The notes under the pieces: generated by a model
Databases searched by the model: none
What the model was told of the DNA's origin: nothing
What the model saw: only the letters and a program-made list of their open reading frames with translations
NCBI GenBank assembly: GCA_964448005.1
Contig: CAYUUW010000013.1
Location: 1 to 35,435 of the forward strand
Reading direction: 5' to 3'
DNA from: an uncultured Candidatus Peribacteria bacterium
Lineage (GTDB): Bacteria > Patescibacteriota > Gracilibacteria > UM-FILTER-43-11
DNA: 35,435 bases
Made by a program: the position numbers and the translations under genes
Shown: piece after piece, positions 1-32,990 of the stretch
Numbering within the stretch: the first letter of the stretch is position 1
How the letters are laid out: every line of letters starts with the position of its first letter

Positions 1-517
1 GGCTGAAGACGTAGATTCGCCTGGCCAGGGGCAGGTTCTTCTCGCCTTTGCTGATCCTGGCCGCTAAATAGAAGAGGTATCCCGCCAGCACATAGAGCAC
101 AAAGCCCAGGGGCAGCGCCAGCAGCATGGAGACGAGCCAGATGGGGAGCCAGCGGTCCATCAGGGAAACGGCATCGGGCATCAGCGGAGCCACCAGGATG
201 TTGCTGATGGCCATCATGGTTCCCACCAGCCACAGGGCCAGCAGCGTGAACTTCTGGTGGTCCTTCTCCAAAAAGTGGGCGATGAAGTGTTTGGGCGAAG
301 TGAGGTAGGCCTTGAGGCTGGGCATCAGCTGGGATTTGAGCATGGGCTTCAGATAGGCCATGCAATCCTTGTAGCTGAGCGCCACGAGAATCGGCGCAAG
401 GGCAAAAATCAGCAATTGGCCCTGAATGCCCTGCGGGGAGAAATTTTCTGGGCCAGCAATAAGAAAATTGTAGCCGAAGCCAAGCGCTATTATGCTGGCG
501 AGTACAAGCAGGACCAT
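1..517 (-). CDS. integral membrane protein, C-terminus beyond the window edge (Yip1-domain-like, tentative)
   Basis: Absent from the ORF track because it is open to the window edge. ATG at 517-515 (minus); I checked that this frame has no stop down to base 1. My translation MVLLVLASIIALGFGYNF...LPIWLVSMLLALPLGFVLYVLAGYLFYLAARISKGEKNLP is dominated by hydrophobic helices. Backbone-like high GC. Confidence 0.5.
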   Translation of the reverse strand, partial: MVLLVLASIIALGFGYNFLIAGPENFSPQGIQGQLLIFALAPILVALSYKDCMAYLKPMLKSQLMPSLKAYLTSPKHFIAHFLEKDHQKFTLLALWLVGTMMAISNILVAPLMPDAVSLMDRWLPIWLVSMLLALPLGFVLYVLAGYLFYLAARISKGEKNLPLARRIYVFS

Positions 518-547
518 GGAATAAAAATTAGGGATAAGATGAGTAAA

Positions 548-1108
548 TCAGGATGGATTTTTTAGATCCGTATTGATCAAAAAGCTGTGGTAGAAAATAG
601 AACGACTGGCGGGGAGATGGTACAGGATCACTATATCTCCCTCGTGGATTCCGCCGCCCCAAAAATAGGAATAAGGCTCCCCATTGCCGTTCGTCTCTCC
701 ATTCAAGTAAATGTTTTGACCTCCGTGAGCGTGGGTTGTGTCAGTCACCTTGCCGATAACCGTAGCAAGACCATGCTGATTATAATAATTCCAATCAGAA
801 AAAAATATGGGCAAAGCCTTTATCTGAATTGGAACGAATGCAACAAGCATTACGACCATGAGCACCTTTAAAAGCCTCTCCTTCTGCTTACGGTAGCCAA
901 CAAGAGCAAAAATGGAAAAAAAGATCAAATAAAAACCAAAGAAATGCTCTAAAAAAAATGTTCCCCATTTGGCCAATATATCAAGCCCGCTTCCGCTGGG
1001 AGTAAAAATATGGGCAAGCCAAAGAGGGACCACAAGAACCAAAAAAATTTTTATCATAGATTCTGCAATCCTTTCAGCCCTATTTGGTGCTCGATCGCCA
1101 TCCGCCAT
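548..1108 (-). CDS. multi-TM membrane protein with small C-terminal soluble domain, paralogue B (immunity-like candidate)
   Basis: 186-aa ORF. Hydrophobic helices IKIFLVLVVPLWLAHIF, FFGFYLIFFSIFALVGY and LMVVMLVAFVPIQI, then a ~90-aa domain. Clear paralogue of the adjacent 199-aa ORF (shared Q.K..P.FF.D..YY.QHG and VTD.TH..GQN.YLNG..Y..F.GGGI...D.V.LY.LP.S..IFY). Low GC; 10-nt gap to the upstream gene. Confidence 0.6.
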   Translation of the reverse strand: MADGDRAPNRAERIAESMIKIFLVLVVPLWLAHIFTPSGSGLDILAKWGTFFLEHFFGFYLIFFSIFALVGYRKQKERLLKVLMVVMLVAFVPIQIKALPIFFSDWNYYNQHGLATVIGKVTDTTHAHGGQNIYLNGETNGNGEPYSYFWGGGIHEGDIVILYHLPASRSIFYHSFLINTDLKNPS

Positions 1109-1118
1109 CGATTGTTCG

Positions 1119-1718
1119 TTAAAGAGTTTGCTCTGAACCCATGCCTTGTATTTTTTCTGTCCCTAATTCTTCTTCAGCTTCCAGAAGTTCGTAGTAGAAA
1201 ATGAAATGGCTTTTGGGCAGGGTGTACAGGGTCACCTGATCGGTTAGCTCGATTCCGCCGCCAAAAAAATTCCCATAGGCCATCCCACCCTTCCTCTTGT
1301 CGCCATTCAGATAAACGTTCTGGCCGAAGCCTCTGGAGTAGTGCGTCAAATCAGTAACTGTTCCTGATACTTCGTAAAAACCATGCTGCTCATAATATTC
1401 AATGTCTTTGAAAAATACAGGATAATATTTTAGCTGTAGAAAAATCATTGCAATAAGAAGGCCGATAGCCAAAAGCTTTCCCGTACGGTCATTGTCTCGA
1501 CGATGGTCTATTAGATAGGTGATTGAAAGTACAATCATGAGCGAGAAACCAAAATGCCCCAATCCAAAGGTGGCCCATCTCAGCGGAACGATGGACGGAT
1601 TTGTGGAGGACCAGAAAAGATTTGCCACAACGAAACCTCCAATAATGATGATATAGAGATAAAAGATCCTTGTAGCGACCTTACCATCCCTCCTGGTTGA
1701 TTGAGTCAATTCTGTCAT
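1119..1718 (-). CDS. multi-TM membrane protein with small C-terminal soluble domain, paralogue A (immunity-like candidate)
   Basis: 199-aa ORF. Its ATG overlaps the stop of the 841-aa ORF (ATGA at 1715-1718), implying translational coupling. Same architecture and motifs as the 186-aa paralogue. Low GC. Confidence 0.65.
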   Translation of the reverse strand: MTELTQSTRRDGKVATRIFYLYIIIIGGFVVANLFWSSTNPSIVPLRWATFGLGHFGFSLMIVLSITYLIDHRRDNDRTGKLLAIGLLIAMIFLQLKYYPVFFKDIEYYEQHGFYEVSGTVTDLTHYSRGFGQNVYLNGDKRKGGMAYGNFFGGGIELTDQVTLYTLPKSHFIFYYELLEAEEELGTEKIQGMGSEQTL

Positions 1719-4240
1719 TTTTTCTTACTGAAAGGATTAAGGGATTGTAAGAAGGTGCCCACCTTTTCTTTGACAGTTTTTTTGGCAGAAGCATTCTGTA
1801 AGGCTGTCTTAGTTTGATCCAATACAATAGATGTTGCTGTGGAAAGGGCTGTTTTCTTATAATTCTCCACCACGTCTCCCACGATGGCCTTTGCGGCCGT
1901 ATTGCCCGTCATTTTTTTGGCCGTATTATTGGTGAGTTTGGTGATGATCTGGTTGCCAATGCCTGTCAGTTTATTTTTAAATTTAGAGGGCTCGGGGCCA
2001 ATGGAAGCAAGGGCGCCAGATGAAAATGCGCCGAGGTAATTAATTTCTTCACTAGAATTCGTAATATCACTGACTGTTTCTTGTATCAATCCTTCAATTC
2101 CCCCAACAATCCCTTTTTTCATTCTACTGTCCGCAGGGCTTGAAACCACTCCGCTAAAGAAACCTGAAATCATCTTACCAGCATAAGTAGCGGCCGAAGC
2201 AGCGCCAGTAAGCGTATCATCTACCATTTGCCCAATGGTCGATGCAATAGCCCCTCCTGTTCCTTTGATGATGGCGATTTTAGCAGTATTGAGCGATTGA
2301 CCAGCGAATTGGGCAATCTTCAGCGAAGCCACGGCTGCGCCGCCGGCCACCATGTTGCCGATCTCCTTGGTGCCATGCAGCAGCGTGTTGGCCAAGCCGC
2401 CTGGCTTCGTCACTGCATTGATTCCTTGGCTCATGTAGCTCCAATTCCTTTCCACCACCGCCTTTTTGGGGTCGCCGAACAGGTTCTGGAAGCCCGAGAC
2501 GATGTTGCCCAAGCCGGCGCCCAGATTGTCCGTTCCAAAAGCCACTGCAGTAGCCCCTACCGGCGCACCCACCGCTGTGGAAGTCAGCCCCAGGCCAAAG
2601 GCCGTCTGCACGCCGCCCACCAGCATATTCCAGCTCCCGGAGCCCAGCTGCTTGATTCCCTCCACCCGTCGAGGCTCGGTGACCCAATCCTTGGCTTTTC
2701 CGAAAAAGCCCTTCTCCTCCTCCAGCACCTTGCTGGGCGGAATGGCGATCACTCCTTGCTTTTGGGCGCTGCGCAGGAAGCCCAAGCCTTCGGTCAGGCT
2801 CCCCAGCCCTTTGCTGACCAGGCTGGAGAGCGAGAATTCGGTTTTGGGGACGCTGGCCTTCGGGGCTGCCGCAAGAGGCGCTTTTTGGGGCGCCGGGGCC
2901 GAGCCTGCGCAAAGGCCCGAAGCGCAGGGCAATGCGTAGGGCTGGCTTCCGTAGCCCTCGGCCAGCACGGAGATTTGCCCCATGGAGCCTTTGCCGCCCA
3001 GCGACTTCACCAGCGTTCCGGCCGGGAAATCCCAGCAGCCTGCGGCGGAGCAGCCCTTGACGCCTTTCGGCAGAAAGGCGATCGGCCCGGGAGCTTGGTC
3101 CCAGGCGGATTGGGCCTCCAGGCGTCCGCCGTCCTCCGGGGGCGGGGGAACAAACGGTTCGGGCAAGGGCTGGGGCTGCGCAGGGTCAACAGGATCCTGG
3201 GCTTCTGCCAGCGGATCGGGGAAGGGAAGGGGATTTTCCGGATCCTCCTCCGGCCATTCAGGCTCCGCTGGCGGCAGGAACATCGCATTCTCCTCCAGGC
3301 TGTTCACCGTGGGGTCGGCCACCGGATCCGGCGAAATGGGGGCGTACAGCGAGCTCAGCGAAAAGTAGCGCGCCGCCTCGGCCCGGCTGAGCGGCTGCAT
3401 CAGCCATTGCGCCCGCTGCTGCGGGTAAATGAGCCCCTGCTGCTCAAAAAGCTGGCACTGGGACCCGAAGAAATCCAGAAGGTCCGCCAGCAGGGCGTAG
3501 GCCAACAGGCGCTGGGAATCCTCGGTGACCCCGCCGTTCAGGGCCAAAAGATCGAGCTCCGCGCCCTGGAGGCACTTGGGCTGGAAGGAGCCCCGAGAGG
3601 CCGCCAGGCTCTCCAACAGGGAAAATTTTGGGTCCTGGGCCGGGTCCACATAGCCGCTGTCGGTCAGCAGCATCTTGAAGGCGTGGGCCCGCAGGATCGG
3701 GTCGTTAGGACGAAAAACGCGCTGCTCGGCGGAGCCCTCGTAGCCCTTCACAAAGCCGCTGTCCGCCGCGAAGTAGACGAAGCGGGAGAACCAGGGCTGG
3801 CAGCCGCGGTAGCCTTCGGTCTGCAGCAGGCACGCAGGATCGCCCTCCGGCACGTCGGCGAAAGGAAGGCCTCCTATCTTTTGGCATGCGCCCGCGGAGC
3901 AGTTGAAGTGGCCGCCCAGATGCTCGGCCAGAAGCTGCTCCATCTGCAGGGCGCTCTTGCCGGCCCAGCCTTCGGCCTGGCCGTAGGCCTCCGCCAGCCG
4001 AACCACCGTGGCCAGCTTGGCCATTTCGGCCCGGTTCAGGCTGTCCCAGGGGCGAAAAGTCCCCGTCTCCCGCCCCAGCATGGAATCGCCGGAAAGCAGG
4101 TGCTGGTCCCGGAGCGACTGGATGTAGGGGGAAAAAAGCTCATCCGGCTCCACGTCGCCAAAAGAGGCCGCTTGAGCCAAGGGCGAAAGGAACAAGGTCA
4201 GAATGAGCGGAAGGGCCGGGTTGCGAAGGAGGTTCCTCAT
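1715..4240 (-). CDS. secreted SLH-domain protein with Pro-rich linker and Gly/Ala/Ser/Thr-rich C-terminal module
   Basis: 841-aa ORF. Signal-peptide-like N-terminus (PLILTLFLSPLAQAASF). SLH-like repeats (FGDV...GTFRPWDSLNRAEMAKLATVV; FADVPEGD...RVFRPNDPILRAHAFKMLL). Pro/Glu linker (PPAEPEWPEEDPENPLPFPDP...PPPPEDGG). C-terminal ~330 aa has small-xxx-small runs (GLGLTSTAVGAPVGATAVAFGTDNLGAGLGNIVSG, GNMVAGGAAVASL, IKGTGGAIASTIG). Confidence 0.8.
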   Translation of the reverse strand: MRNLLRNPALPLILTLFLSPLAQAASFGDVEPDELFSPYIQSLRDQHLLSGDSMLGRETGTFRPWDSLNRAEMAKLATVVRLAEAYGQAEGWAGKSALQMEQLLAEHLGGHFNCSAGACQKIGGLPFADVPEGDPACLLQTEGYRGCQPWFSRFVYFAADSGFVKGYEGSAEQRVFRPNDPILRAHAFKMLLTDSGYVDPAQDPKFSLLESLAASRGSFQPKCLQGAELDLLALNGGVTEDSQRLLAYALLADLLDFFGSQCQLFEQQGLIYPQQRAQWLMQPLSRAEAARYFSLSSLYAPISPDPVADPTVNSLEENAMFLPPAEPEWPEEDPENPLPFPDPLAEAQDPVDPAQPQPLPEPFVPPPPEDGGRLEAQSAWDQAPGPIAFLPKGVKGCSAAGCWDFPAGTLVKSLGGKGSMGQISVLAEGYGSQPYALPCASGLCAGSAPAPQKAPLAAAPKASVPKTEFSLSSLVSKGLGSLTEGLGFLRSAQKQGVIAIPPSKVLEEEKGFFGKAKDWVTEPRRVEGIKQLGSGSWNMLVGGVQTAFGLGLTSTAVGAPVGATAVAFGTDNLGAGLGNIVSGFQNLFGDPKKAVVERNWSYMSQGINAVTKPGGLANTLLHGTKEIGNMVAGGAAVASLKIAQFAGQSLNTAKIAIIKGTGGAIASTIGQMVDDTLTGAASAATYAGKMISGFFSGVVSSPADSRMKKGIVGGIEGLIQETVSDITNSSEEINYLGAFSSGALASIGPEPSKFKNKLTGIGNQIITKLTNNTAKKMTGNTAAKAIVGDVVENYKKTALSTATSIVLDQTKTALQNASAKKTVKEKVGTFLQSLNPFSKKK

Positions 4241-4441
4241 GCGCCAGGGGGTGGGAAGGGTGGAAGGCTTGTCCGCCGAAGCATCGGCGAAGGAGGGCGA
4301 ATGGAGGAGGGCCTGCCCCCTGTAGCCTTGGCGAAAGGGGGTTGGGCCTCATCATAGCCACCCTTCTCTAGGGCGTCAAGAAAAACCGGCAAAAAGGACG
4401 CCGTAGGACCCCTGGCCTCGTCGCTCGCCTTCAGCGAAGGC

Positions 4442-4945
4442 CTACATCTGGCGGCTGTCGTAGGCCCAGTGCAGAAGGGCTTGGCGCTGCTTTTTGCGGC
4501 ATTCCAGATTCCCGCGCTCGCAGTGCTTTTTGATTTGGGCGATATGGCGCCTCATCGCTTTCCAGCGCTTGATCTGGCGGGCATCGTCGTCCGATCGTCT
4601 CCCCAGGTAATAGCGGCAGTACCACTGGAACCAGCCCCGAGGATCCTCCCAATGGATCCAATCCTTCTTTCGCCAGTAGTCCAGGGGCTTGGAGGCGTTG
4701 ACGCCGAAAAAATTCAGGCTGGGGTCATGCCGCTCGGCGCAGAGCCTGGCCTTTTTAAACCAGGAAGCCGGAAACTCGGCCCTGCAGTCGGTCATGTATT
4801 TTCCGCCGAAAACGCCCAATTCCAGCATCTGCTTGGGCGTGAGCTCAGGCTTGAACTCAGGGTCGAAATTTCGCCCCGCCGGCTCAGCCAGAAAGTAGCG
4901 GTAGCCCTTTTGCATCCGGTCGTGGACGACCACTCTTCGCTGCAT
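4442..4945 (-). CDS. conserved hypothetical protein (Trp/Arg-rich, family not recognised)
   Basis: 167-aa ORF with protein-like composition and conserved-looking motifs (GVFGGKYM, DPRGWFQWYCRYYLGRR, RWKAMRRH). The overlapping plus-strand ORFs are Arg/Pro/Ala-rich, typical of antisense frames in GC-rich DNA. Confidence 0.65.
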   Translation of the reverse strand: MQRRVVVHDRMQKGYRYFLAEPAGRNFDPEFKPELTPKQMLELGVFGGKYMTDCRAEFPASWFKKARLCAERHDPSLNFFGVNASKPLDYWRKKDWIHWEDPRGWFQWYCRYYLGRRSDDDARQIKRWKAMRRHIAQIKKHCERGNLECRKKQRQALLHWAYDSRQM

Positions 4946-4992
4946 GGATATGTTTGGCTAAGGGCTTTGCCTTGGGAATGCCGGACTTCAGC

Positions 4993-5373
4993 TCAGGAGG
5001 CCCAGGCGAAATAGGCAAAGACCAGGCCGAGCAAGAAAGCGAAAGCGCCGTACCCGTAGAAGTTCTTCTTGGTCAGCACTTCCATCGAGATCTTTGCCAT
5101 CTTCTCCGGGAAAATGATCATCGACAGTCCTTTGAGGGTGGCGATCCAGCCGAAAAGCGTCACCAGCACAGGCCATCCGCTCCACACATTGTGGAAGCTG
5201 ACGATCGAAAAGCCAATCACCAGCGTGATCACCGGAGCGAAATAGGCCATGGTGTGGTTCTTGAAGGCCTTCTGGAAAACCTGGCGGTAGTAGTCGGCGC
5301 TCACGATCATGCCCAGGCCCACAGCCAAATAGACTACGGCCAACAGTCGAAGCACAAAGGCAGTGGTGTCCAT
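4993..5373 (-). CDS. small integral membrane protein
   Basis: From the 146-aa ORF 4993..5433. I prefer the internal ATG at 5373 (MDTTAFVLRLLAVVYLAVGLG...) because the first 20 codons are Lys/Asn-rich and not hydrophobic. About four predicted helices. Confidence 0.55.
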   Translation of the reverse strand: MDTTAFVLRLLAVVYLAVGLGMIVSADYYRQVFQKAFKNHTMAYFAPVITLVIGFSIVSFHNVWSGWPVLVTLFGWIATLKGLSMIIFPEKMAKISMEVLTKKNFYGYGAFAFLLGLVFAYFAWAS

Positions 5374-11581: not shown

Positions 11582-11630
11582 CCCTGCAATCTATATATCC
11601 TTTCAATTGGATCCTCAACTGGAAATCTCC

Positions 11631-13112
11631 ATGAAAAAAATCCTCACCCGCATCCCCCCTTCCCCCACCGGGCTCCTGCACATCGGCACCGTCCGGACCG
11701 CTCTGTACAATTATCTTTTCGCCAAGCACCACGGCGGAACGATGGTTTTTAGGATCGAGGACACGGACAAGGAGCGGGGCACGCCCGAGTTTGAAAGGAA
11801 CATCATCGACGGCTTGGTTCAGCTGGGAATCGCAGGCGACGAGGGCGTCCACAAAGGAGGCCCGCACGGCCCTTACCGCCAAAGCGAACGGACCGAGATT
11901 TACCGAAAATACCTCCATCGCCTGGTGGCCGAGGACAAGGCCTATTTCTGCTTCTGCAGCAAGGATCGCCTTGAAGAGATGCGCCAGGCCCAGATCGCGG
12001 CCAAAAGGCCCACGCGCTACGACGGGACCTGTTCCGGCCTGTTTCCTGCCGAGAGCCGGCAGCGGGTGGAGGAGGGCGAGCGAGCGGTTATTCGCCTGCG
12101 GGTGCCGGAGGGCCGGGGCGATGTGGCCTGGGAGGACGGCGTGCGGGGCCCGGTCGCCATCCACAGCCGCGAGCTGGACGATTTTGTGATCGCCCGGGGG
12201 CTGGACGACCCCCTCTACCACCTGACGGTGGTGGCCGACGACCACGACATGCAGATCACGCACGTGATCCGAGGGGAGGACCACATCAGCAACACGCCCA
12301 AGCAGATCCTGATCTTCGAGGCTTTCGGCTGGGACATTCCGGCATTCGCCCATCTCCCGCTCATCCTGAACGAGGACAAGACGAAGCTGAGCAAGCGCAA
12401 GAACAAAGTGGCTGTCCAGGACTATCTGGAGGACGGAATCCTTCCCGAGGCGCTGCTGAACTTTTTGGCCCTGCTGGGCTGGAACACGCCCGACGAGCAG
12501 GAGCTTTTCAGCATGGAGGAATTGGTCGAAAAATTCACGCTGGAGGCCGTGCACAAGGGGGGCGCCGTGTTCGACCTCAAGAAGCTGGAATGGGTCAATG
12601 GAGAGTACATCAAAAAAGCCATCGCGCAGGATACGGACGGCTTCTACGAAAGGGCCAAGCCCTTTTTGGGAGCGCTTGCGGCGGAGGATCCGCAGCGGAT
12701 CAAGGCGATCCTGAGAGATCCTGACTTCGAGGGGCGCTTCAAGAAGCTCTCGGAAATTCCCGAGGCGCTGGGCTGCCTGTTCGGCGAGGTGGCGGATTAT
12801 CCGAAAGAACTGATCCTGAGCGCCAAATTCAGCCTTACCCCCGAGCTGCTCACGCAGGTGATGGAGGCGGCCATCGAGGTCACGGTCAAGATGGAGTGGG
12901 CTAGGGGAGACATGGGCCAGGCCAAAACAATATCGGACACCTACATTGGCCTGGTGGAGAAGCTCGGTCTCAAGAACGGCCAGGTGCTCTGGCCCATCCG
13001 CGTGGCGCTCTCCGGCCTGGATCGCTCGCCGGGCTTTGCCACCCTCGCCGTGCATTTGGGCAAAGCGGAGACGCTGGAAAGACTAGGATATGCCTTAGAA
13101 AAAGTTAGCTGA
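11631..13112 (+). CDS. gltX: glutamate--tRNA ligase
   Basis: ORF 11607..13112, with start moved to the ATG at 11631 (MKKILTRIPPSPTGLLHIGTVRTALYNYLFA...). Class I HIGH motif (LHIG), FRIEDTD and KLSKRK (KMSKS-type) are present. Confidence 0.95.
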   Translation: MKKILTRIPPSPTGLLHIGTVRTALYNYLFAKHHGGTMVFRIEDTDKERGTPEFERNIIDGLVQLGIAGDEGVHKGGPHGPYRQSERTEIYRKYLHRLVAEDKAYFCFCSKDRLEEMRQAQIAAKRPTRYDGTCSGLFPAESRQRVEEGERAVIRLRVPEGRGDVAWEDGVRGPVAIHSRELDDFVIARGLDDPLYHLTVVADDHDMQITHVIRGEDHISNTPKQILIFEAFGWDIPAFAHLPLILNEDKTKLSKRKNKVAVQDYLEDGILPEALLNFLALLGWNTPDEQELFSMEELVEKFTLEAVHKGGAVFDLKKLEWVNGEYIKKAIAQDTDGFYERAKPFLGALAAEDPQRIKAILRDPDFEGRFKKLSEIPEALGCLFGEVADYPKELILSAKFSLTPELLTQVMEAAIEVTVKMEWARGDMGQAKTISDTYIGLVEKLGLKNGQVLWPIRVALSGLDRSPGFATLAVHLGKAETLERLGYALEKVS

Positions 13113-20540: not shown

Positions 20541-23500
20541 TCACAGCCTGCCTCCAGAAATATCGAAAAATCGCTCGAAGAAGCTCGTCAATTTATCCAG
20601 CACGCTCTCGCGCTTCTTGCTGCGCTCGCCACCGGGTGAAAAGCGGGATACGGGCGGCAGTATTTTGGAGATAGCCGTGCCGGTGGGTGAAACGCTTCCA
20701 TTTCGGAAGGCGTCTCTTGCAAATTTATAGGCCTCCTCGCGGTCCAGGTTTTCTTCCTCGATGATCCGCTCCAGCTCATCCATTTTTTTCTTCTCCACGA
20801 ATTTCTGCCAATCGTCGTCGACCACCGAATTCATATCCAGCGAAGCAATGAACTGGTTGATGAGGTCTTTTTTGTTTCGCAGCTCCATGCTTGAATCGAT
20901 GGCCTTGTTGATCTCCGCCAGAAGCTCCTTGTTTTTGACATGGTCTTCGTGATAGGTTTTGACGAGCGCCAGAACGTAGTCGATGTTGATCTCTATCTGC
21001 TTGATCAGCTCCATTTCAAACACAATATCCTCGTTGATGTTTTCCTTTTCGGCGTCGCCTCCTTTTCGGAATTCATTGTAGAGGTCGATGTAGGCGCTGT
21101 GATAATTCTGGATGTCGCGCTCGCTTAAGATTTGATTGCCGGCAAATTCGTCGAAGGTCGCCAGGATATTGCGCACCCTCAAAATGCCGCCGTACAATCG
21201 AATGAAGTCTTTCTGGTTCTGCTCGCCAAGGATGGGTTCGCCCACAGGGAATTTTTCCAAAAGCTCCTTGACCAGGCTTTCGTACCCACGGACCTCCTTT
21301 CCCTCTTCTTCATAGCCGCCGTAGTACTCTTTGTAGGATTTCAAAAGCACGATGCCGCTGGCTTCCTTGTCGCCAAACAGGGCGATGGATTCATTGGTGG
21401 CTTTTTCCAAATTCCGGAAGCACACAATGTTCCCAAAGGCCTTCACGGCGTTCAGAATGCGGTTGGTGCGGGAAAAGGCCTGAAGCAAGCCATGCAATCG
21501 CAGATTCTTATCCACCCACAAGGTGTTGAGCGTGGTCGCGTCGAAGCCGGTCAAAAACATATTCACCACCAGAAGAAGATCCACTTCCCGGTTTTTCACT
21601 CGCTCGCTGACATCCTTGTAGTAATTCTGAAATTTATCGGAGGAGGTGTCGTAGGACGTGCCAAACATGGCGTTGTAGTCGGCTATGGCGCTTTCAAGAA
21701 AATCCCTTGAGCCGGCATCCAAGCCGCTGGTGTCTTCCGGATTTTCATCCGCCATTCCGTCGCCTTCCGCTTCATTGGCTCCAAAGCTGAAAATCGTGGC
21801 CACTTTCAGCTTCTTGTCGCTCGGCAGATCGGCTAGTTGCTTCTTGAATTCGGCATAGTACTTTTTGGCCGTCTCGATGGAAGAAACGGCGAAGATGGAG
21901 TTGAATCCGGATAAGCGTATTTTTTCCATGATCCTATCAACCTTTGACCTATCCTTTGCCGTTACAATCTCTTTAACATTCTTGGTAACAGCATGCGTAA
22001 AAAACTTATTATTTCGCTTCGTTTTCTGATTAAAGTGTTCAATAATATACTCTACGATATTTGCCAGGCGTTCGGGTGCGGCCAATGCCGCCTCCCGATC
22101 AATGTCGCTGACTTTCTTGTCTTCAATGTCTTCGGCTTCACGAACCGTGGAAACATAGTCCACTTTGAACGGCAGAACGTTCTTGTCGGCAATGGCATCC
22201 ACAATGGTGTAGGTGTGAAGCTTGGCCCCAAAGGCCTGTTCGGTGGTTCTGAAATCGGGGCGACCGCCGGAAGAAGAATTCTTGGCGAAAATGGGGGTGC
22301 CGGTGAAGCCAAAGAGATGGTAATTTTTGAAGGCCTTGGCAATGGCGGCGTGCATGTCGCCAAACTGGGAGCGGTGGCATTCATCGAAAATCAGCACGAT
22401 GTGGCCGTCTAAAACAGTGTGTCCGGCATTGCGGCCTATGAATCGGTCGAGTTTTTGAATGGTGGTGACAATGATTCGCGCGTTTGGGTCCTCAAGCTGG
22501 CGCTTGAGTAGGGCCGTGCTGGCGTTGCTGTTGGCCGCGCCTTTTTCGAACTTGTCGTATTCGCGCATGGTCTGGTAGTCCAGGTCCTTGCGGTCCACGA
22601 CGAACAATACTTTATCCACATAGGGCAGCTTGCTGGCGAGCTGGGCGGTTTTGAAGCTGGTTAAGGTTTTTCCCGATCCGGTGGTGTGCCACACGTATCC
22701 GCCTGCCTCTACCGTGCCCAGTTTTTTGTAGTTGGTGCTGACTTGGATTTTGCTGAGGATCTTTTCCGTGGCCACGATCTGATAGGGGCGCATGACCAGT
22801 AGCTGCTTGTCGGCGGTGAGCACGCAGTAGCGGGTGAGAATGTTCAAAAGGGTGTGCTTGGCGAAAAATGTCTTGCCGAAATCCACCAGGTCGGCAATGG
22901 GCTTGTTGGCCGCATCCGCCCACCAGCTGGTGAATTCGAAGCTGCTGCTGGAGCGTTTTCCTTTTTTTGCCGCGCCTTCCGCGCCTTCCTTGATGTGCGC
23001 GGCGCGGGTGGTGTTGCTGTAGTACTTGGTGTGGGTGCCGTTGGAGATGATGAAGAGCTGTATGTATTCAAACAATCCCGATCCGGCCCAAAAGCTTTCC
23101 CGCTGGTAGCGATTGATTTGATTGAAGGCTTCTTGAATGGCGATTCCGCGACGTTTGAGTTCGATGTGCACCAGGGGGAGGCCGTTGACGAGCACGGTTG
23201 CGTCGTATCGGTTGGCGCGTTGGCCGTCGTCGGTCGCGTACTGGTTGATGACCTGCAAACAGTTTTCGTGGATGTTGTCTTTTTTGAGCAGATAGACGTT
23301 TTTCACGGTGCCGTCGTCGCGGGTCAGGTTCTTGATGTAGTCCTCCTGGACGGTCGCGGCCTTCTCGGCAATGCCTTGATTGGGGTTGGCGATCTCATTC
23401 TTGAAAAAGCGATCCCATTCCTCGTTGGTGAACATGAAGCCGTTGAGTTCTTCCAGCTGCACGCGCAGGTTTATTTCCAGATCGGTTTCGGAGGTGATGG

Positions 23501-23684
23501 GCAGGTATTCATAGGCTTGGGATTCCAATTGCTGAATAAAGGCCTTTTCCAGCTCGGCTTCGCTTTGGTAGTGCGAGGCGCGTTTTTGGTCCGGCGTGTA
23601 CTGGGCCACGACGGTGCTCCCCGCCTCGCCGGCAGGCAGGTGTGAATTTTCGGCGACGAGATTGTAGGCTTTATTTCTTGGCAT
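20541..23684 (-). CDS. hsdR: type I restriction enzyme R subunit
   Basis: 1047 aa. N-terminal nuclease region; SF2 motor motifs I (HTTGSGKTLTSF) and II (IFDECHRSQ); long helical C-terminal region. Size and layout like EcoR124I-type (type IC) HsdR. Confidence 0.95.
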   Translation of the reverse strand: MPRNKAYNLVAENSHLPAGEAGSTVVAQYTPDQKRASHYQSEAELEKAFIQQLESQAYEYLPITSETDLEINLRVQLEELNGFMFTNEEWDRFFKNEIANPNQGIAEKAATVQEDYIKNLTRDDGTVKNVYLLKKDNIHENCLQVINQYATDDGQRANRYDATVLVNGLPLVHIELKRRGIAIQEAFNQINRYQRESFWAGSGLFEYIQLFIISNGTHTKYYSNTTRAAHIKEGAEGAAKKGKRSSSSFEFTSWWADAANKPIADLVDFGKTFFAKHTLLNILTRYCVLTADKQLLVMRPYQIVATEKILSKIQVSTNYKKLGTVEAGGYVWHTTGSGKTLTSFKTAQLASKLPYVDKVLFVVDRKDLDYQTMREYDKFEKGAANSNASTALLKRQLEDPNARIIVTTIQKLDRFIGRNAGHTVLDGHIVLIFDECHRSQFGDMHAAIAKAFKNYHLFGFTGTPIFAKNSSSGGRPDFRTTEQAFGAKLHTYTIVDAIADKNVLPFKVDYVSTVREAEDIEDKKVSDIDREAALAAPERLANIVEYIIEHFNQKTKRNNKFFTHAVTKNVKEIVTAKDRSKVDRIMEKIRLSGFNSIFAVSSIETAKKYYAEFKKQLADLPSDKKLKVATIFSFGANEAEGDGMADENPEDTSGLDAGSRDFLESAIADYNAMFGTSYDTSSDKFQNYYKDVSERVKNREVDLLLVVNMFLTGFDATTLNTLWVDKNLRLHGLLQAFSRTNRILNAVKAFGNIVCFRNLEKATNESIALFGDKEASGIVLLKSYKEYYGGYEEEGKEVRGYESLVKELLEKFPVGEPILGEQNQKDFIRLYGGILRVRNILATFDEFAGNQILSERDIQNYHSAYIDLYNEFRKGGDAEKENINEDIVFEMELIKQIEINIDYVLALVKTYHEDHVKNKELLAEINKAIDSSMELRNKKDLINQFIASLDMNSVVDDDWQKFVEKKKMDELERIIEEENLDREEAYKFARDAFRNGSVSPTGTAISKILPPVSRFSPGGERSKKRESVLDKLTSFFERFFDISGGRL

Positions 23685-23687
23685 AGT

Positions 23688-24494
23688 TTATTTTAATAGC
23701 TTTTTATTCTCAACGTCTTGCAATATTTTTATCTGCTGAATGGCTATTTGATTGAGTTTGATCAGTCTTTCGCTTTGAGCCATCTTTTCACCTATAAAAA
23801 CAGCATTCAAGTTTTCCATATTGGAAAGGCAAATGAGTTCATTAATGTTGGCATAGTCACGTATGTTTCCTTTTAAATCAGGACTGGCTTCGCGCCACTC
23901 TTTGGCGGTCATGCCAAACAGCGCTACATTCAATACATCTGCTTCGTTGGCGTACACGTGATTGATTTGTTTCTTTGTAAGCTCGGCAGGAATGAGGTTT
24001 TGTTTAATGGCATCGGTATGTATTCGATAGTTGATTTTTGCCAGTTCTCGTTTGGCACTCCAGCCGATTTGCTTTTGTTCTGCTTCTTTGAGGCGTTGGA
24101 ACTCTTTGATAAAATACAATTCAAATTCGATAGAAATCCAAGCAGCGAATTTAAAGGCAATATCCTTGTGAGCAAATGTTCCTCCATAGCGACCTGATTT
24201 AGAAATAATTCCTTTAGCATTGGTAGTTTCGATCCACTTTTGAGGAGATAGGGTAAATGCATTGAGTCCCGCTTGTTTTCTAAACCCCTCGAATTCGATG
24301 GGTTTAAATTCGGAATTATATAATGTTTCCCATACCCCCAAATATTCGATGGTATTTCGGTTTCTCATCCAATTTGAAATTGTCGCAGTTGGTTCATCGC
24401 TCTTGTATTTTGCAATATCTGTCAGAGAAATATAATCTTTTCCCTGAAAAGTAAGGATTGAAATCTCTGTTTCTTGTACGGTTATTTTCGGCAT
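23688..24494 (-). CDS. KilA-N domain-containing protein
   Basis: EISILTFQGKDYISLTDIAKYK...ISNWMRNRNTIEYLGVWETLYNSEFKPIEFEGF...SGRYGGTFAHKDIAFKFAAWISIEFELYFIKEFQRLKE matches the widespread bacterial KilA-N family almost block for block. Its stop is 3 nt from the hsdR ATG. Confidence 0.85.
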   Translation of the reverse strand: MPKITVQETEISILTFQGKDYISLTDIAKYKSDEPTATISNWMRNRNTIEYLGVWETLYNSEFKPIEFEGFRKQAGLNAFTLSPQKWIETTNAKGIISKSGRYGGTFAHKDIAFKFAAWISIEFELYFIKEFQRLKEAEQKQIGWSAKRELAKINYRIHTDAIKQNLIPAELTKKQINHVYANEADVLNVALFGMTAKEWREASPDLKGNIRDYANINELICLSNMENLNAVFIGEKMAQSERLIKLNQIAIQQIKILQDVENKKLLK

Positions 24495-24549
24495 AGTGGT
24501 CTATGGGTTGCAATAAGGGGGGTTGAATTCGGCCCTCTAAGTTGATTTT

Positions 24550-24578
24550 TATTTATGGCGAATTCGCCATAATTTAAA
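24550..24578 (-). promoter_or_regulatory. perfect 20-bp palindrome (24553-24572) inside a promoter-like spacer upstream of the KilA-N gene
   Basis: ttatggcgaattcgccataa is a perfect palindrome. On the minus strand it fills the 17-nt spacer between TTTAAA (-35-like) and TAAATA (-10-like). About 60 nt upstream of the KilA-N ATG. Confidence 0.35.
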
Positions 24579-24589
24579 CATTTTCTTTG

Positions 24590-24607
24590 ATCATAGTTTA
24601 AGACTTT
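24590..24607. repeat. junction motif copy 3 (18-bp direct repeat of 27388-27405)
   Basis: atcatagtttaagacttt is identical at both sites. On the minus strand it reads AAAGTCTTAAACTATGAT, i.e. the last codons K-S-stop of RhuM followed by ACT ATG. Confidence 0.9.
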
Positions 24608-25596
24608 TTCTTTTTTGCGACCTTTTTCTCTATGGATTTTATGGCTTCCAAATAGTCTTTTTCAACAGGGGATAAGGTTTTGACCTGGTATTTGCGATAC
24701 TCTTTCCCGGCTTTTTCTATGGCTTTTTCGTGGCTTACTTTACCCGCATTGGTCAATTTTCCTTTGCCATAGATTTCTGAAAATTTATCCAGTTCCGCCA
24801 CCCAGTCACTCATTTTCATCGGTTCTTGGTCTTGGGCTTTTATTTCCGCCAGATCAAAAAAGGCGGATACCAGACGATTGAGGCGATAGAGCTCATCTTT
24901 GGTCAGGTAGTTTTTGGCAATGGTCGCGTCGGCTTTTTTAGGCACTGTTCCGGAGAAATTGGTCATCCCCATGAATTCTTTTTCGCTGTCGGCACGGGAA
25001 AAAATCAACTCTGCGGCAGTCTGCTGGTTGGTGGCGTAATGCAATTTGTTCTGCACGGTTTTGAAAAACAAAACAGATTCTTTGCTTTTGGAGTCGTAAT
25101 CAATGCTGGTGGCGTACAGATCCAGCACTTGTCGATACAGGACCTTTTCGCTGCTGCGGATGTCGCGGATTCTCTCCAGTAGCTCTTTCCAGTAATTGCC
25201 ACCGGCTGTTCCTTTGAGCCTTTCATCGTCCATAGCAAAACCTTTGATGATGTATTCTTTTAGTCTCTGTGTCGCCCAAATTCTAAATTGCGTGCCACGG
25301 AGGGAATTGACGCGGTAGCCGACGGAGATGATGGCATCGAGGTTATAGTGTTTTACGTGATAATTCTTTCCGTCGGAGGCAGTTACCGAGAAATCCTCGG
25401 CAACTGATTTTTCATTTAGTTCTCGGCTTTTGAATATATTTTTCAGATGAAGACTGATGTTGTCGGAAGTGCAGTCAAAAAGCTGCGCCATTGATTTTTG
25501 CGAAAGCCAGATGGTCTCGCCTTTCATCAGGGTATCCACGGATATTTTTCCGTCTTCGGTTTGATAGATGATGATTTGATTGTCTTGCATCTTCAT
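24598..25596 (-). CDS. RhuM family (virulence protein RhuM-like) protein
   Basis: IIIYQTEDGKISVDTLMKGETIWLSQKSMAQLFDCTSDNISLHLKNIF...HYNLDAIISVGYRVNSLRGTQFRIWATQRLKEYIIKGFAMDDERLK is the canonical RhuM N-terminal block. Confidence 0.85.
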   Translation of the reverse strand: MKMQDNQIIIYQTEDGKISVDTLMKGETIWLSQKSMAQLFDCTSDNISLHLKNIFKSRELNEKSVAEDFSVTASDGKNYHVKHYNLDAIISVGYRVNSLRGTQFRIWATQRLKEYIIKGFAMDDERLKGTAGGNYWKELLERIRDIRSSEKVLYRQVLDLYATSIDYDSKSKESVLFFKTVQNKLHYATNQQTAAELIFSRADSEKEFMGMTNFSGTVPKKADATIAKNYLTKDELYRLNRLVSAFFDLAEIKAQDQEPMKMSDWVAELDKFSEIYGKGKLTNAGKVSHEKAIEKAGKEYRKYQVKTLSPVEKDYLEAIKSIEKKVAKKKKS

Positions 25597-25620
25597 TATG
25601 ATTAAATCATTCGCCCTTTT

Positions 25621-25649
25621 AGTTTAGTAAACATTTGTTTACTGGTCAA
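25621..25649 (-). promoter_or_regulatory. candidate internal promoter with an 18-bp palindromic operator upstream of the RhuM gene
   Basis: The minus strand reads TTGACC (25649-25644), a 17-nt spacer agtaaacaaatgtttac, then TAAACT (25626-25621). The spacer is essentially the palindrome agtaaaca-tt-tgtttact (25626-25643). About 30 nt upstream of the ATG at 25596. Confidence 0.4.
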
Positions 25650-25671
25650 CGGTGGGTCATGCTTAAAATGA

Positions 25672-26925
25672 TCAGGCTCGACCCTTGAGGGGCTTGAAGG
25701 TTAAAAGCTTGTTTCGGTAGTATTCGTATTGTTGCCTTCTCGCCTTGATTTCGGCGGGAAGCCCCCCTGTCATTCCGGACCCCGATCCGGAATCTCCTCC
25801 ATTGACCAGGGCATCGAATTTGTCGAGGATGGCGACGATGCGGGTTTGTTCAGCGAGGGGTGGGATGGGGATTTTTATTTTTGAAATTTCTCCCAAGTTG
25901 ATTTTTATAGGTGTCGCATTTACTAAGGTTCTCTTATATAGTTCAGTTTTACCAACTCCACTTTCAATAATAAATTTCAGGTATCTTGTCAAAACTTGTT
26001 TATGGTCTGGTCGGATGAGTGTTAGCGTAACATAATAAGCCAGCGGTTTATCATTTTCAACAACCGTACAAGTCCCAATGTCACCGATTCTTGTCATAAA
26101 CAAATCATCTTTTTTCGGCTTGTATTTGTATTTTTCAAAATCAGCAACTGATATGCATTTCTTTGTAGCATAAAGATTTTTAATATTCTCAACACTGACA
26201 AACGGAACGCCTTCTGTTGTATATTTGGGTGTCTGGTGTGTGCCATCATAAGTTTCTGCAACTTCCCCCAAACTCTTCCACTCCACATCATCCCCGAACG
26301 TTAAAAGCTCATCCCTATAATACTCATACTGCCTCTTTCTTGCCTCCAGCTCCGCCTCCAGCTCCGCCTCCAGCTCCGCCTCCAGCTCCGTAAATGTATC
26401 GAGGATGTTGACAATTTCTTGTTGGATGGGGAGGGGCGGGAGGGGAATTTTGAATTTTTTCACCTCAGCATCAGAAATTGCTGGATAACTCGCCCCTTTC
26501 TGTGTGTTCTCAACATAGTCAAAAAAATCTGAGGAGCCAATTAAATGATAGATAAAATTAGTTAACACTTTATTTGTATCTGGTCGTAGAACACAAAAAC
26601 CAGTGCTACAGATCTGCCCATCGAAATTTGAATCAATAATGCTAAAACGTTTCAATGTTGGTCGCGTTGTCCCAAAGATAACATCACCAGTTTTTACAAT
26701 TTGCTGCGCTCTGCTTGGGGCTGTTTCTGCATTTATAGTCTGCGTTTCTGATATTTTATGGGTAATGCGGTTAACAGAAGTTAAATCAATATATTGGAAA
26801 GTTTGGCTACCGACTGATTGCCATTTGATATTTTCCTTAGGAAGCAAGATGTCACCCAATTCCTTAAACTCCACCCCATTGGGGCAGAGTTCTGAGATTA
26901 ATAGGTCGATTTTGGGTTGGTGCAT
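25672..26925 (-). CDS. hsdS: type I restriction-modification specificity subunit
   Basis: 417 aa. Two low-GC target-recognition domains separated by the conserved helices ILDTFTELEAELEAELEAELEARKRQYEYYRDELLTF (central) and ILDKFDALVNGG...GLPAEIKARRQQYEYYRNKLLTF (distal). Confidence 0.95.
   Translation of the reverse strand: MHQPKIDLLISELCPNGVEFKELGDILLPKENIKWQSVGSQTFQYIDLTSVNRITHKISETQTINAETAPSRAQQIVKTGDVIFGTTRPTLKRFSIIDSNFDGQICSTGFCVLRPDTNKVLTNFIYHLIGSSDFFDYVENTQKGASYPAISDAEVKKFKIPLPPLPIQQEIVNILDTFTELEAELEAELEAELEARKRQYEYYRDELLTFGDDVEWKSLGEVAETYDGTHQTPKYTTEGVPFVSVENIKNLYATKKCISVADFEKYKYKPKKDDLFMTRIGDIGTCTVVENDKPLAYYVTLTLIRPDHKQVLTRYLKFIIESGVGKTELYKRTLVNATPIKINLGEISKIKIPIPPLAEQTRIVAILDKFDALVNGGDSGSGSGMTGGLPAEIKARRQQYEYYRNKLLTFKPLKGRA
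26342..26389 (-). repeat. 4 perfect tandem copies of a 12-bp unit (gcctccagctcc), in frame, encoding (ELEA)x4 in the HsdS central conserved region
   Basis: Counted base by base: 26342-26353, 26354-26365, 26366-26377 and 26378-26389 are identical. Confidence 0.95.
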
Positions 26926-26926
26926 T

Positions 26927-26942
26927 GTCTTAAACTATGATT
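26927..26942. repeat. junction motif copy 2 (inverted; perfect 16-bp inverted repeat partner of 27387-27402)
   Basis: gtcttaaactatgatt; its reverse complement aatcatagtttaagac is exactly 27387-27402. Contains the GxxExxY stop codon and ends 1 nt before the hsdS ATG. Confidence 0.9.
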
Positions 26943-27375
26943 GAAGTGATTTTGTGATGGGCTGTGATTTTTTTGTCTTCATGAGCCGCTTGAATTCCAT
27001 GCTTTTGGAGCCAAAGTTGATCAGGAGCCCGATCTCCAGCTTGTAGGCCTCTAAATAATTGATCGCCTGGGCCCAGTGGACATCTTCGAGCCTTATGACC
27101 GCCTTGATTTCAACCATCACCTTCCCCTCAACAAAAAAATCCACCCTTCTTGTGCCGATCCGCGCTCCTTTGTACTCCACGGGCATTTCGTGCTCCCTGG
27201 AAAAGGCAAGGCCATGGTCCTCCAGCTCGATCGCCAAAGCCCTCTGATAGATCACTTCCTGAAAGCCATTCCCCAGAGTTTTATGCACCTCCATGGCGGC
27301 GCCAATGATCCTGGCCGTTAGGTCGGAATGCTTGTATTGATCGTTGATGAAGGTGTTTTGAATCATAGTTTTCAT
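26935..27375 (-). CDS. GxxExxY protein (PD-(D/E)XK-fold family, also known from 23S rRNA intervening sequences)
   Basis: AAMEVHKTLGNGFQEVIYQRALAIELEDHGLAFSREHEMPVEYKGARIGTRRVDFFVEGKVMVEIKAV...HWAQAINYLEAYKLEIGLLINFG carries the G..E..Y motif and the D..(x)n..E.K nuclease-fold core. Confidence 0.9.
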   Translation of the reverse strand: MKTMIQNTFINDQYKHSDLTARIIGAAMEVHKTLGNGFQEVIYQRALAIELEDHGLAFSREHEMPVEYKGARIGTRRVDFFVEGKVMVEIKAVIRLEDVHWAQAINYLEAYKLEIGLLINFGSKSMEFKRLMKTKKSQPITKSLQS

Positions 27376-27386
27376 TTCATCACAAA

Positions 27387-27405
27387 AATCATAGTTTAAG
27401 ACTTT
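27387..27405. repeat. junction motif copy 1 (inverted-repeat partner of 26927-26942; 18-bp direct repeat of 24590-24607)
   Basis: aatcatagtttaagacttt. On the minus strand it supplies the last codons K-S-stop of hsdM followed by ACT ATG. Confidence 0.9.
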
Positions 27406-31582: not shown

Positions 31583-31668
31583 GTCGAGCGGTTGAGAAGT
31601 TGCACATCCTGCCTATCCGAAGGCCTCTTGAGGAGACGATTTTTCCTGAAATTTGCCTTCAGCCGAAG

Positions 31669-32931: not shown

Positions 32932-32990
32932 ATTTTTTTGTTAGTTTTTTCCCCTTCAAGATAGCAAAGGACAGAATTTTCGCCAGAGGA

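Follow-up and report, generated by a model that had tools for sequence, protein, structure and literature searches.

The window analyzed here is a stretch of 35,435 nt, positions 1 to 35,435 of contig CAYUUW010000013.1 in assembly GCA_964448005.1 of an uncultured Candidatus Peribacteria bacterium. The minus strand of positions 1..4400 carries a string of features running in one direction, namely, a promoter candidate and open reading frames (ORFs) for an 841-amino-acid (841-aa) protein, a 199-aa protein, a 186-aa protein, and a Yip1-like membrane protein. An original prediction, made from the sequence, had placed at this locus an 841-aa ORF with a signal peptide whose stop codon overlaps the start of the next gene, and had read it with the two genes that follow as a polymorphic toxin/immunity cassette. 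Both the ORF and the overlap were found as predicted (at ATGA, 1715-1718, the TGA of the 841-aa gene shares bases with the ATG of the 199-aa gene). The Yip1-like gene after the cassette had been overlooked and proved to be a third conserved component. On the evidence set out below, we hold it an even chance that the locus is a polymorphic-toxin-like cassette of an undescribed, very rare family. The features are listed here by their positions in the window; GC3 is the GC content at third codon positions, and P0003, P0004, and P0005 are relatives found at loci L002, L003, and L004, respectively.

1715..4240, minus strand: 841-aa mosaic protein, predicted to be secreted and SLH anchored (ORF including the stop codon)
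4169..4240, minus strand: putative signal peptide, residues 1-24, with an AQA/AS cleavage motif (read from the sequence, with no dedicated predictor)
3341..4165, minus strand: three SLH-like repeats, residues ~26-300 (Pfam SLH and repeat alignment)
3086..3340, minus strand: Pro/Glu/Asp-rich linker, residues 301-385 (composition)
2696..3085, minus strand: middle region, residues 386-515 (four-Cys segment and Ala/Pro/Lys linker)
2318..2695, minus strand: module (i), residues 516-641, at native GC (HMMER homology to P0003 and P0005)
1718..2317, minus strand: module (ii), residues 642-841, low GC, candidate effector (GC3 change point; homology to P0004 and P0005)
1119..1718, minus strand: 199-aa protein, candidate cognate immunity protein (ORF, paralogy, hydropathy, and AlphaFold model)
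548..1108, minus strand: 186-aa paralogue of the 199-aa protein (ORF and paralogy)
2..517, minus strand: Yip1-like polytopic membrane protein, cut by the contig end (BLASTP/tblastn to L004 and L002)
400..2317, no strand: low-GC patch of ~1.9 kb comprising module (ii), both small genes, and the first ~40 Yip1-like codons (GC3)
4351..4379, minus strand: sigma-70-like promoter candidate (TTGACG, 17-nt spacer, TATGAT) upstream of the 841-aa gene, matching 10 of 12 consensus positions (consensus match alone)
4387-4403: terminator-like hairpin of the gene upstream of the SLH gene, separating a 167-aa ORF from the cassette

Using HMMER, residues 495-841 of the 841-aa protein were searched exhaustively against 1.84 billion representative proteins, and three relatives were found besides the protein itself:

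P0003, 711 aa, locus L002: E = 6e-8, 38% identity over residues 516-654
P0004, 341 aa, locus L003: E = 1.1e-5, alignment over residues 623-812
P0005, 355 aa, locus L004: E = 2.7e-5, alignment over residues 505-765

Each of the three is a singleton cluster from a short metagenomic contig, with GC contents of 0.29-0.35. Because the downstream genes in the neighborhoods of the relatives are also homologous to those in the window, the matches were taken as genuine homology rather than as a product of composition. L004 contains two tandem cassettes; its second toxin-like gene (3739..4737) has, apart from a single in-frame TAA at 4255-4257, an identity of 47% to P0004 over 260 aa, and the genes downstream of it, one for a small membrane protein and one Yip1-like, are intact. 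An alternative genetic code behind this stop was rejected, as the TAA is a lone one and the other ORFs of L004 are intact under table 11. A minus-strand gene call for a 57-aa protein inside the second toxin-like gene (L004 4308..4481) is probably spurious. P0005 is probably truncated at its N terminus, because the frame is open upstream of the called ATG. Bases 1-57 of L004 are the reverse complement of ~100-157, an assembly artifact at the contig end.

The ~330 C-terminal residues of the 841-aa protein are rich in Gly, Ala, Ser, Thr, Lys, and Ile, and alignment with the relatives divides them into two modules. Module (i), residues ~516-650, with homology to P0003 reaching residue ~654, starts with the motif W-x3-P-[RK]-R-x-E-G, followed by a hairpin that is rich in Gly/Ala and of moderate hydrophobicity and then by a helical part (GINxxT...LHxTH); it is common to the 841-aa protein, P0003, P0005, and the product of the second L004 gene. 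The Kyte-Doolittle hydropathy of the hairpin is 1.28-1.38 in the window protein, reaches the transmembrane (TM)-like values of 1.91 and 1.64 in P0003, and falls below the TM threshold of 1.6 in P0005. Module (ii), residues ~650-841 by homology, is Lys/Thr/Ala/Gly/Ser/Ile rich and predicted, with low confidence, to be helical. It is shared by the 841-aa protein, P0004, P0005, and the product of the second L004 gene and is missing from P0003, on which the module (ii) profile scores -5.9. P0003 instead continues after module (i) with ~six short helical repeats and a ~170-aa domain of unrelated sequence; it has a signal peptide but no SLH repeats, and its region before module (i) is unrelated to that of the window protein.

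The genes that follow the modules are also conserved. The 199-aa protein and its 186-aa paralogue share 37% identity (E = 5e-38), and each has three predicted TM helices in its first ~100 residues (3-TM) followed by a beta-rich domain of ~70 aa, in keeping with the two tandem multi-TM paralogues originally predicted. In an AlphaFold model based on both paralogues, the 199-aa protein shows three long helices plus five strands, with a mean predicted local distance difference test score (pLDDT) of 69. Basic residues lie before TM1 and in the TM2-TM3 loop of the 3-TM proteins; since these charged residues flanking the TM helices fit the positive-inside rule, an extracytoplasmic location of the beta domain is predicted. 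Homologues were found at L003 1174..1716 (after P0004) and at L004 1181..1882 and 4767..5306, and a comparison of the window pair with this trio using hhalign gave a probability of 97.8% (E = 1.2e-12), with the same 3-TM and beta layout and shared motifs. A homologue of this type stands directly after module (ii) in every case (5/5), that is, in the window (two copies), in L003, and in L004 (two cassettes), while P0003, which has no module (ii), is followed by a soluble 131-aa protein without a TM helix and then by a Yip1-like gene. The beta domains of the five members gave no Pfam NfeD or DUF3592 match at E ≤ 1, and a Foldseek search with the model of the 199-aa protein alone gave no match with E ≤ 0.001 in PDB or BFVD. 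An independent gene call starts the 186-aa gene at Met18, giving a 169-aa product (on the Logan contig described below).

The Yip1-like ORF at 2..517 matched L004 5333..6133 (BLASTP, E = 1e-20) and a partial ORF at the contig end of L002, 2833..3153 (tblastn, E = 9e-10), and it is also homologous to the membrane portion of the protein encoded at L004 1895..3292. Three of the four loci have a Yip1-like gene at the end of the cassette, namely, the window, L002, and L004 (twice), and L003 has none. The Pfam family Yip1 (PF04893) scored 18.5 and 20.6 bits on the L004 homologues (E = 2e-3 and 4.5e-4, respectively), below the cut-off of 28.6, and the truncated ORF of the window gave no Pfam Yip1 match. 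Overall, the pattern across the loci is one of a variable N terminus, a conserved module (i), a variable C terminus that predicts the type of the next gene, and a conserved Yip1-like gene.

A break in base composition was found at the junction of the two modules. By maximum likelihood, GC3 in the 841-aa gene changes after codon 641, from 0.80 to 0.41, and this change point coincides with the end of the P0003 homology at residue ~654. The two small genes have GC3 values of 0.46 and 0.44, against 0.78-0.82 for the backbone genes xth, gltX, and the DUF2207 gene, and the Yip1-like ORF has a GC3 of 0.55 over its first 40 codons and of 0.85-0.95 thereafter. From the break after codon 641 and the rise ~40 codons into the Yip1-like gene, the patch therefore extends over ~400..2317, with both ends within coding sequence, and it is foreign DNA. 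Low GC in the C-terminal codons and in both downstream genes had been predicted, and the sharp break after codon 641 bears this out; of the extent first given to the patch, the end of the module and the small genes stand, and the left edge is moved to ~40 codons inside the gene at 2..517. An independent contig of 1,750 bp in the Logan collection (public run SRR10036081) is 100% identical to window 215..1964, which confirms the left edge of the patch and stops short of the right edge at ~nt 2317. A mobile element flanked by repeats around the patch was looked for and rejected, with just short repeats at chance level and the expected matches between the paralogues being present.

The N-terminal half of the 841-aa protein has the features of a wall-anchored surface protein. 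The N terminus, MRNLLRNPALPLILTLFLSPLAQA followed by AS, is that of a typical Sec signal peptide with an AXA cleavage site and a hydrophobic segment at residues 9-27. Pfam SLH was matched with an E value of 1.2e-9 (38.5 bits against a cut-off of 20.8) in two scoring stretches, and a degenerate third repeat aligns with the first two, at the upper end of the two to three repeats originally predicted. A signal peptide together with usually three SLH repeats is what marks SLH wall-anchored proteins, and both are present here; the repeats are predicted to be the anchor of the protein to the cell wall, through the secondary cell wall polymer. The Pro/Glu-rich linker, likewise as predicted, occupies residues 301-385 and consists of 28% Pro and 22% Asp plus Glu, with 19 acidic residues against 1 basic residue. 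No relatives of the middle region (residues 386-515) were found, and its comparison with the equivalent part of P0003 gave an E value of 0.6.

The original prediction had described the C-terminal region as a Gly/Ala/Ser/Thr-rich zipper. The richness in these residues stands, but the small-xxx-small spacing does not exceed that of shuffles with the same composition. Within residues 501-841, GxxxG occurs 5 times against 5.6 expected, [GAS]xxx[GAS] occurs 42 times against 36.3 expected (P = 0.09), and the triple zipper occurs 18 times against 11.7 expected (P = 0.06), and small residues spaced i,i+4 are not enriched in the three homologues (P = 0.46 to 1.0). The segment GIVGGIEGLI, which had been taken for part of the zipper, is instead a piece of a motif also found in two relatives (GGGIEGLL and GGGVEGLL). 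Module (ii) of the window protein has an amphipathic-helix periodicity at 100 degrees that is reached by 3% of shuffles and is not seen in its homologues. An alpha-synuclein-like 11-mer repeat, to which weak PDB matches pointed (E = 0.7 to 0.9), was rejected, the modest 100-degree signal being confined to the window protein.

The last ~24 residues of module (ii), encoded at window 1718..1790 (minus strand) and containing L-E-D-x-N-I-D-Q-[DE]-K-[VL]-N-x-[IF]-L, form a tail that recurs at the C terminus of a neighboring 3-TM protein, P0008 (EKIEIQDFSLDQEKVNDLLESLED; 12.3 bits, E = 6e-6 in a single comparison). In L004 the tail is encoded at 1109..1178 and 1805..1876, and the gene after that for P0008 encodes a Yip1-like protein with a TPR domain. 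TPR repeats are peptide-binding modules, and the tail may be a docking peptide. Residues ~380-470 of P0003 hold ~six tandem copies of a 14-aa unit resembling this tail.

Searches for described families and for further copies returned little. At E ≤ 1, a Pfam-A scan of the 841-aa protein gave only SLH and a chance match to CheC, the colicin pore-forming domain was found by neither Pfam nor PDB profile search, and no pre-toxin family, such as PT-TG, was present in Pfam-A scans of the window protein and P0003 to P0005. Word-indexed protein searches found nothing for the C terminus and retrieved only the 199-aa protein itself when it was the query; with the module alignment, such a search returned P0004 only, in an index swamped by 8,000 low-complexity candidates. 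No orthologue of the whole 841-aa protein was found in genome or metagenome contig collections, and the alignment of the 3-TM family found nothing in genome, metagenome, or viral contig collections. P0004 found nothing in viral contigs, and tblastn searches of plasmids likewise found nothing. An origin of the cassette in a phage or a defense system was rejected, as there was no PHROGs or PADLOC match.

Wall-associated polymorphic toxin systems are represented by WapA/WapI of Bacillus subtilis. The cassette resembles polymorphic toxin systems as surveyed by Zhang, Aravind, and colleagues in 2012 (PMC3482391) in having a multidomain protein, secreted by prediction, whose N-terminal part would serve in trafficking or anchoring; a conserved pre-toxin-like region; an exchangeable C terminus; a small putatively cognate gene next to it; additional or orphan cassettes; and a shift in composition where the modules meet. 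It differs from them in its SLH anchor, in the absence of RHS, LXG, filamentous, or other known repeats, in modules and small proteins without a Pfam or NCBIfam family, and in a conserved Yip1-like third gene. Neither SLH domains nor S-layers are mentioned in that survey, and no paper joining "polymorphic toxin" and "SLH domain" was found in the literature searched.

Closer parallels for single parts come from toxins that act on membranes. In the ionophore toxins of contact-dependent inhibition (CDI), an entry domain that varies is joined to one that spans the membrane, and the immunity proteins are polymorphic (PMC11630599). CdiA-CT and CdiI are like the present proteins in that an effector is presented at the surface, with an upstream entry domain and a membrane-active helical domain, and in that the immunity proteins are highly polymorphic, with ~30% identity within groups. 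However, CDI is a Gram-negative two-partner-secretion system with a VENN boundary and a variable entry domain, whereas the upstream module (i) is conserved here and no sequence relation was detected. CdzC and CdzD of Caulobacter crescentus are surface-associated, Gly-rich contact killers, and their immunity protein, CdzI, is a small 3-TM protein with no known homologues (PMC5380434). The Cdz toxins are peptides of ~85 aa with type I secretion, true GxxxGxxxG zippers, and aggregation, in contrast to an 841-aa protein that is predicted to be Sec dependent and SLH anchored and has no significant zipper, and the small proteins here have an extra beta domain. TelE, EsxX, and Tse4, glycine-zipper toxins of type VII LXG and type VI systems that depolarize membranes, have Gly-rich helical C termini and downstream immunity genes, and EsxX is neutralized by two distinct immunity protein families (PMC10434224, PMC12744356, PMC12169545). 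Tde1 has a glycine-zipper translocation motif, a segment rich in Gly that precedes its toxin domain and is required for the toxin to be translocated into the target cell (PMC10240207); module (i) occupies a comparable position. All four use another secretion route, whereas the cassette has no LXG or type VI secretion marker, a zipper that is neither statistically present nor conserved, and no detectable homology to them. For the third gene, a lead is provided by YknW, a Yip1-family component of YknWXYZ, which protects Bacillus from the SDP toxin (PMC4887032). Like YknW, the Yip1-like protein is polytopic, and it would be encoded beside genes for a membrane-active toxin; unlike in YknWXYZ, no genes for an ATP-binding cassette transporter or a membrane fusion protein were seen in the cassettes, and the Pfam Yip1 match is subthreshold.

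Three properties expected of a polymorphic toxin are present at these loci. The same upstream region carries different C termini, P0003 having module (i) and not module (ii), although with one alternative architecture this evidence is thin. The C terminus covaries with the next gene, a 3-TM and beta protein following module (ii) and a soluble 131-aa protein following P0003, and extra tandem modules occur as the two paralogues of the window and the two cassettes of L004. Of the original reading as a toxin/immunity cassette, the C-terminal modularity, the coinheritance with the small genes, the tandem copies, and the differing N termini hold up; the zipper and membership in a known toxin family do not.

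Known features of its sequence point to export of the 841-aa protein by Sec and to its attachment to the cell wall through the three SLH repeats. By analogy with these systems, the protein would be a toxin, with the Pro/Glu-rich linker serving as a stalk that displays the two-part C-terminal region. Module (i) may be a pre-toxin or membrane-entry-like domain, because it is conserved between unrelated flanks, is delimited by a fixed motif, and is hydrophobic and Gly rich. Module (ii) would then be the exchangeable effector and could act on the cytoplasmic membrane from outside, since the protein that always accompanies it has three TM helices and a beta domain with a predicted outward orientation; given that placement, neutralization at the outer face of the membrane is the simplest model and the membrane is the simplest guess for the target. 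The 199-aa and 186-aa proteins would be the cognate immunity protein and a duplicate of it, and the Yip1-like protein would be a conserved accessory, possibly in self-protection or toxin handling. Module (ii) and both small genes were presumably acquired by recombination with a donor of lower GC, with one crossover where the two modules join and the second within the 5' end of the Yip1-like gene, so that module (i) and this 5' end were the homologous flanks. If so, the mosaic gene is a clean natural example of cassette replacement with both crossovers within conserved flanks.

Taken as a whole, this describes a Sec-dependent, wall-anchored system for contact-dependent antagonism with three coinherited parts, none in a described family: a surface protein with an entry module and exchangeable effectors; a cognate small protein, either 3-TM with an external beta domain or soluble; and a Yip1-like handling or self-protection factor that possibly recognizes the shared tail peptide. 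We put this complete model forward tentatively, as possible rather than probable. The effector, partner, and accessory families of the cassette are all undescribed, and the SLH anchor is unusual. If the cassette is a toxin system, it adds an effector family, an immunity fold (three TM helices and an external beta domain), and a Yip1-like accessory to the known interbacterial weapons; SLH wall anchoring can act as a platform for weapon display; and bacterial Yip1-like proteins, whose roles are largely unknown, gain a testable genomic context. Its reach is limited by the extreme rarity of the family, with four loci among the representative proteins searched.

Several observations weigh against a toxin. 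Neither module and neither small protein has a match, by sequence or profile, in Pfam, NCBIfam, PHROGs, PADLOC, or PDB, and no recognized family of toxins, pore formers, or immunity proteins matches any of them. A single-sequence AlphaFold model of residues 495-841 had a pLDDT of 37 and was uninformative. A conserved GxxxGxxxG or small-xxx-small zipper, as found in glycine-zipper toxins, is present neither in the window protein (P = 0.06 to 0.7) nor in the homologues. P0004 is encoded by a stand-alone gene without a signal peptide, with a divergent neighbor 70 nt upstream, which is odd for a secreted toxin. The modules have diverged about equally across the relatives (25-38% identity), so that no excess in toxin or immunity regions is visible, and the evidence that the C terminus is swapped comes from a single alternative architecture (P0003) and a single mosaic gene. 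The family is known from four loci, all on short singleton contigs. The tail motif common to module (ii) and one 3-TM protein, beside a Yip1-TPR protein, could point to a stable membrane complex.

Such a complex need not be toxic. The SLH protein might tie the wall or S-layer to the cytoplasmic membrane by docking its C terminus, Gly rich and amphipathic, on the 3-TM and Yip1-like proteins of the same cell; mutual binding would explain the linkage of the three genes across the four loci, and the patch would be an allelic replacement of coadapted partners. The match between the tails of module (ii) and P0008, the lack of a toxin family match, the stand-alone versions without signal peptides, and the amphipathic periodicity of module (ii) in the window all fit this explanation, although the periodicity is missing in the homologues. 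A fixed complex, however, does not predict that P0003 should keep module (i) and the Yip1-like gene while exchanging its C terminus and having a soluble partner. Tandem cassettes in which the toxin-like gene carries a nonsense mutation and the partner is intact are typical of toxin/immunity decay, and a recombination break exactly at the module boundary is a signature of effector swapping. We regard the envelope complex as a serious but rather unlikely alternative. It is also conceivable that the effector is module (i), as a colicin-like pore-forming hairpin against which the Yip1-like protein is a general protector, with module (ii) and the 3-TM proteins forming a covarying targeting or regulatory pair. 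The window, L002, and L004 do combine module (i) with a Yip1-like gene, irrespective of the C terminus; the hairpin of P0003 has TM-like hydropathy; and a Yip1-family protein, YknW, has a part in protection from a membrane-active toxin (PMC4887032). Yet the hairpin is moderate in the window protein and under the TM threshold in P0005, no Pfam family matches the region (that of the colicin pore-forming domain included), and L003 has most of module (ii) with a divergent N terminus and no Yip1-like gene. The foreign patch, moreover, replaced module (ii) and the small genes and left module (i) in place; diversifying exchange therefore acts on module (ii), and a pore-forming module (i) appears improbable.

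The least probable explanation, to which we give very little weight, is that the break in GC marks an assembly chimera of two community members and that composition alone produced the matches to the three relatives. In its favor, the contig of the window is of the metagenome style, the composition of the query is biased, L004 begins with an inverted duplication, and the Logan contig (215..1964) does not span the junction at ~nt 2317. On the other hand, the ORF is uninterrupted, the alignments of P0005 (505-765) and P0004 (623-812) cross codon 641, and the left edge of the patch is confirmed at 100% identity. The downstream genes are independently homologous (hhalign, E = 1.2e-12; BLASTP, E = 1e-20), and a chimera would require two in-frame joins within homologous genes. 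The polymorphic-toxin-like cassette remains the reading that we prefer.

Around the cassette, a 167-aa ORF of native GC lies directly upstream of the SLH gene (4442..4945, minus strand) and has no Pfam match. A 709-aa ORF (2228..4357, plus strand) lies antisense to the 841-aa gene over its high-GC part; it and other long overlapping ORFs nearby are stop-poor frames of the kind expected in high-GC DNA and not genes. No tRNA genes or Rfam elements were found in the window. Elsewhere in the window, gltX lies at 11607..13112. An ORF of 448 aa (31613..32959, minus strand) has no Pfam match and combines a GC content of 0.63 with a GC3 of just 0.45, against ~0.8 for the backbone, and the true gene may use a different frame or the opposite strand. 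A type I restriction-modification system occupies 20541..28964 on the minus strand, with hsdR at 20541..23684, hsdS at 25672..26925, and hsdM at 27396..28964, and a RhuM-family gene (24598..25596) lies between hsdR and hsdS. GC3 is 0.42 in hsdS, 0.53 in rhuM, and 0.69 in hsdR and hsdM; as its GC is lower than that of the backbone, this region is probably another acquired island.

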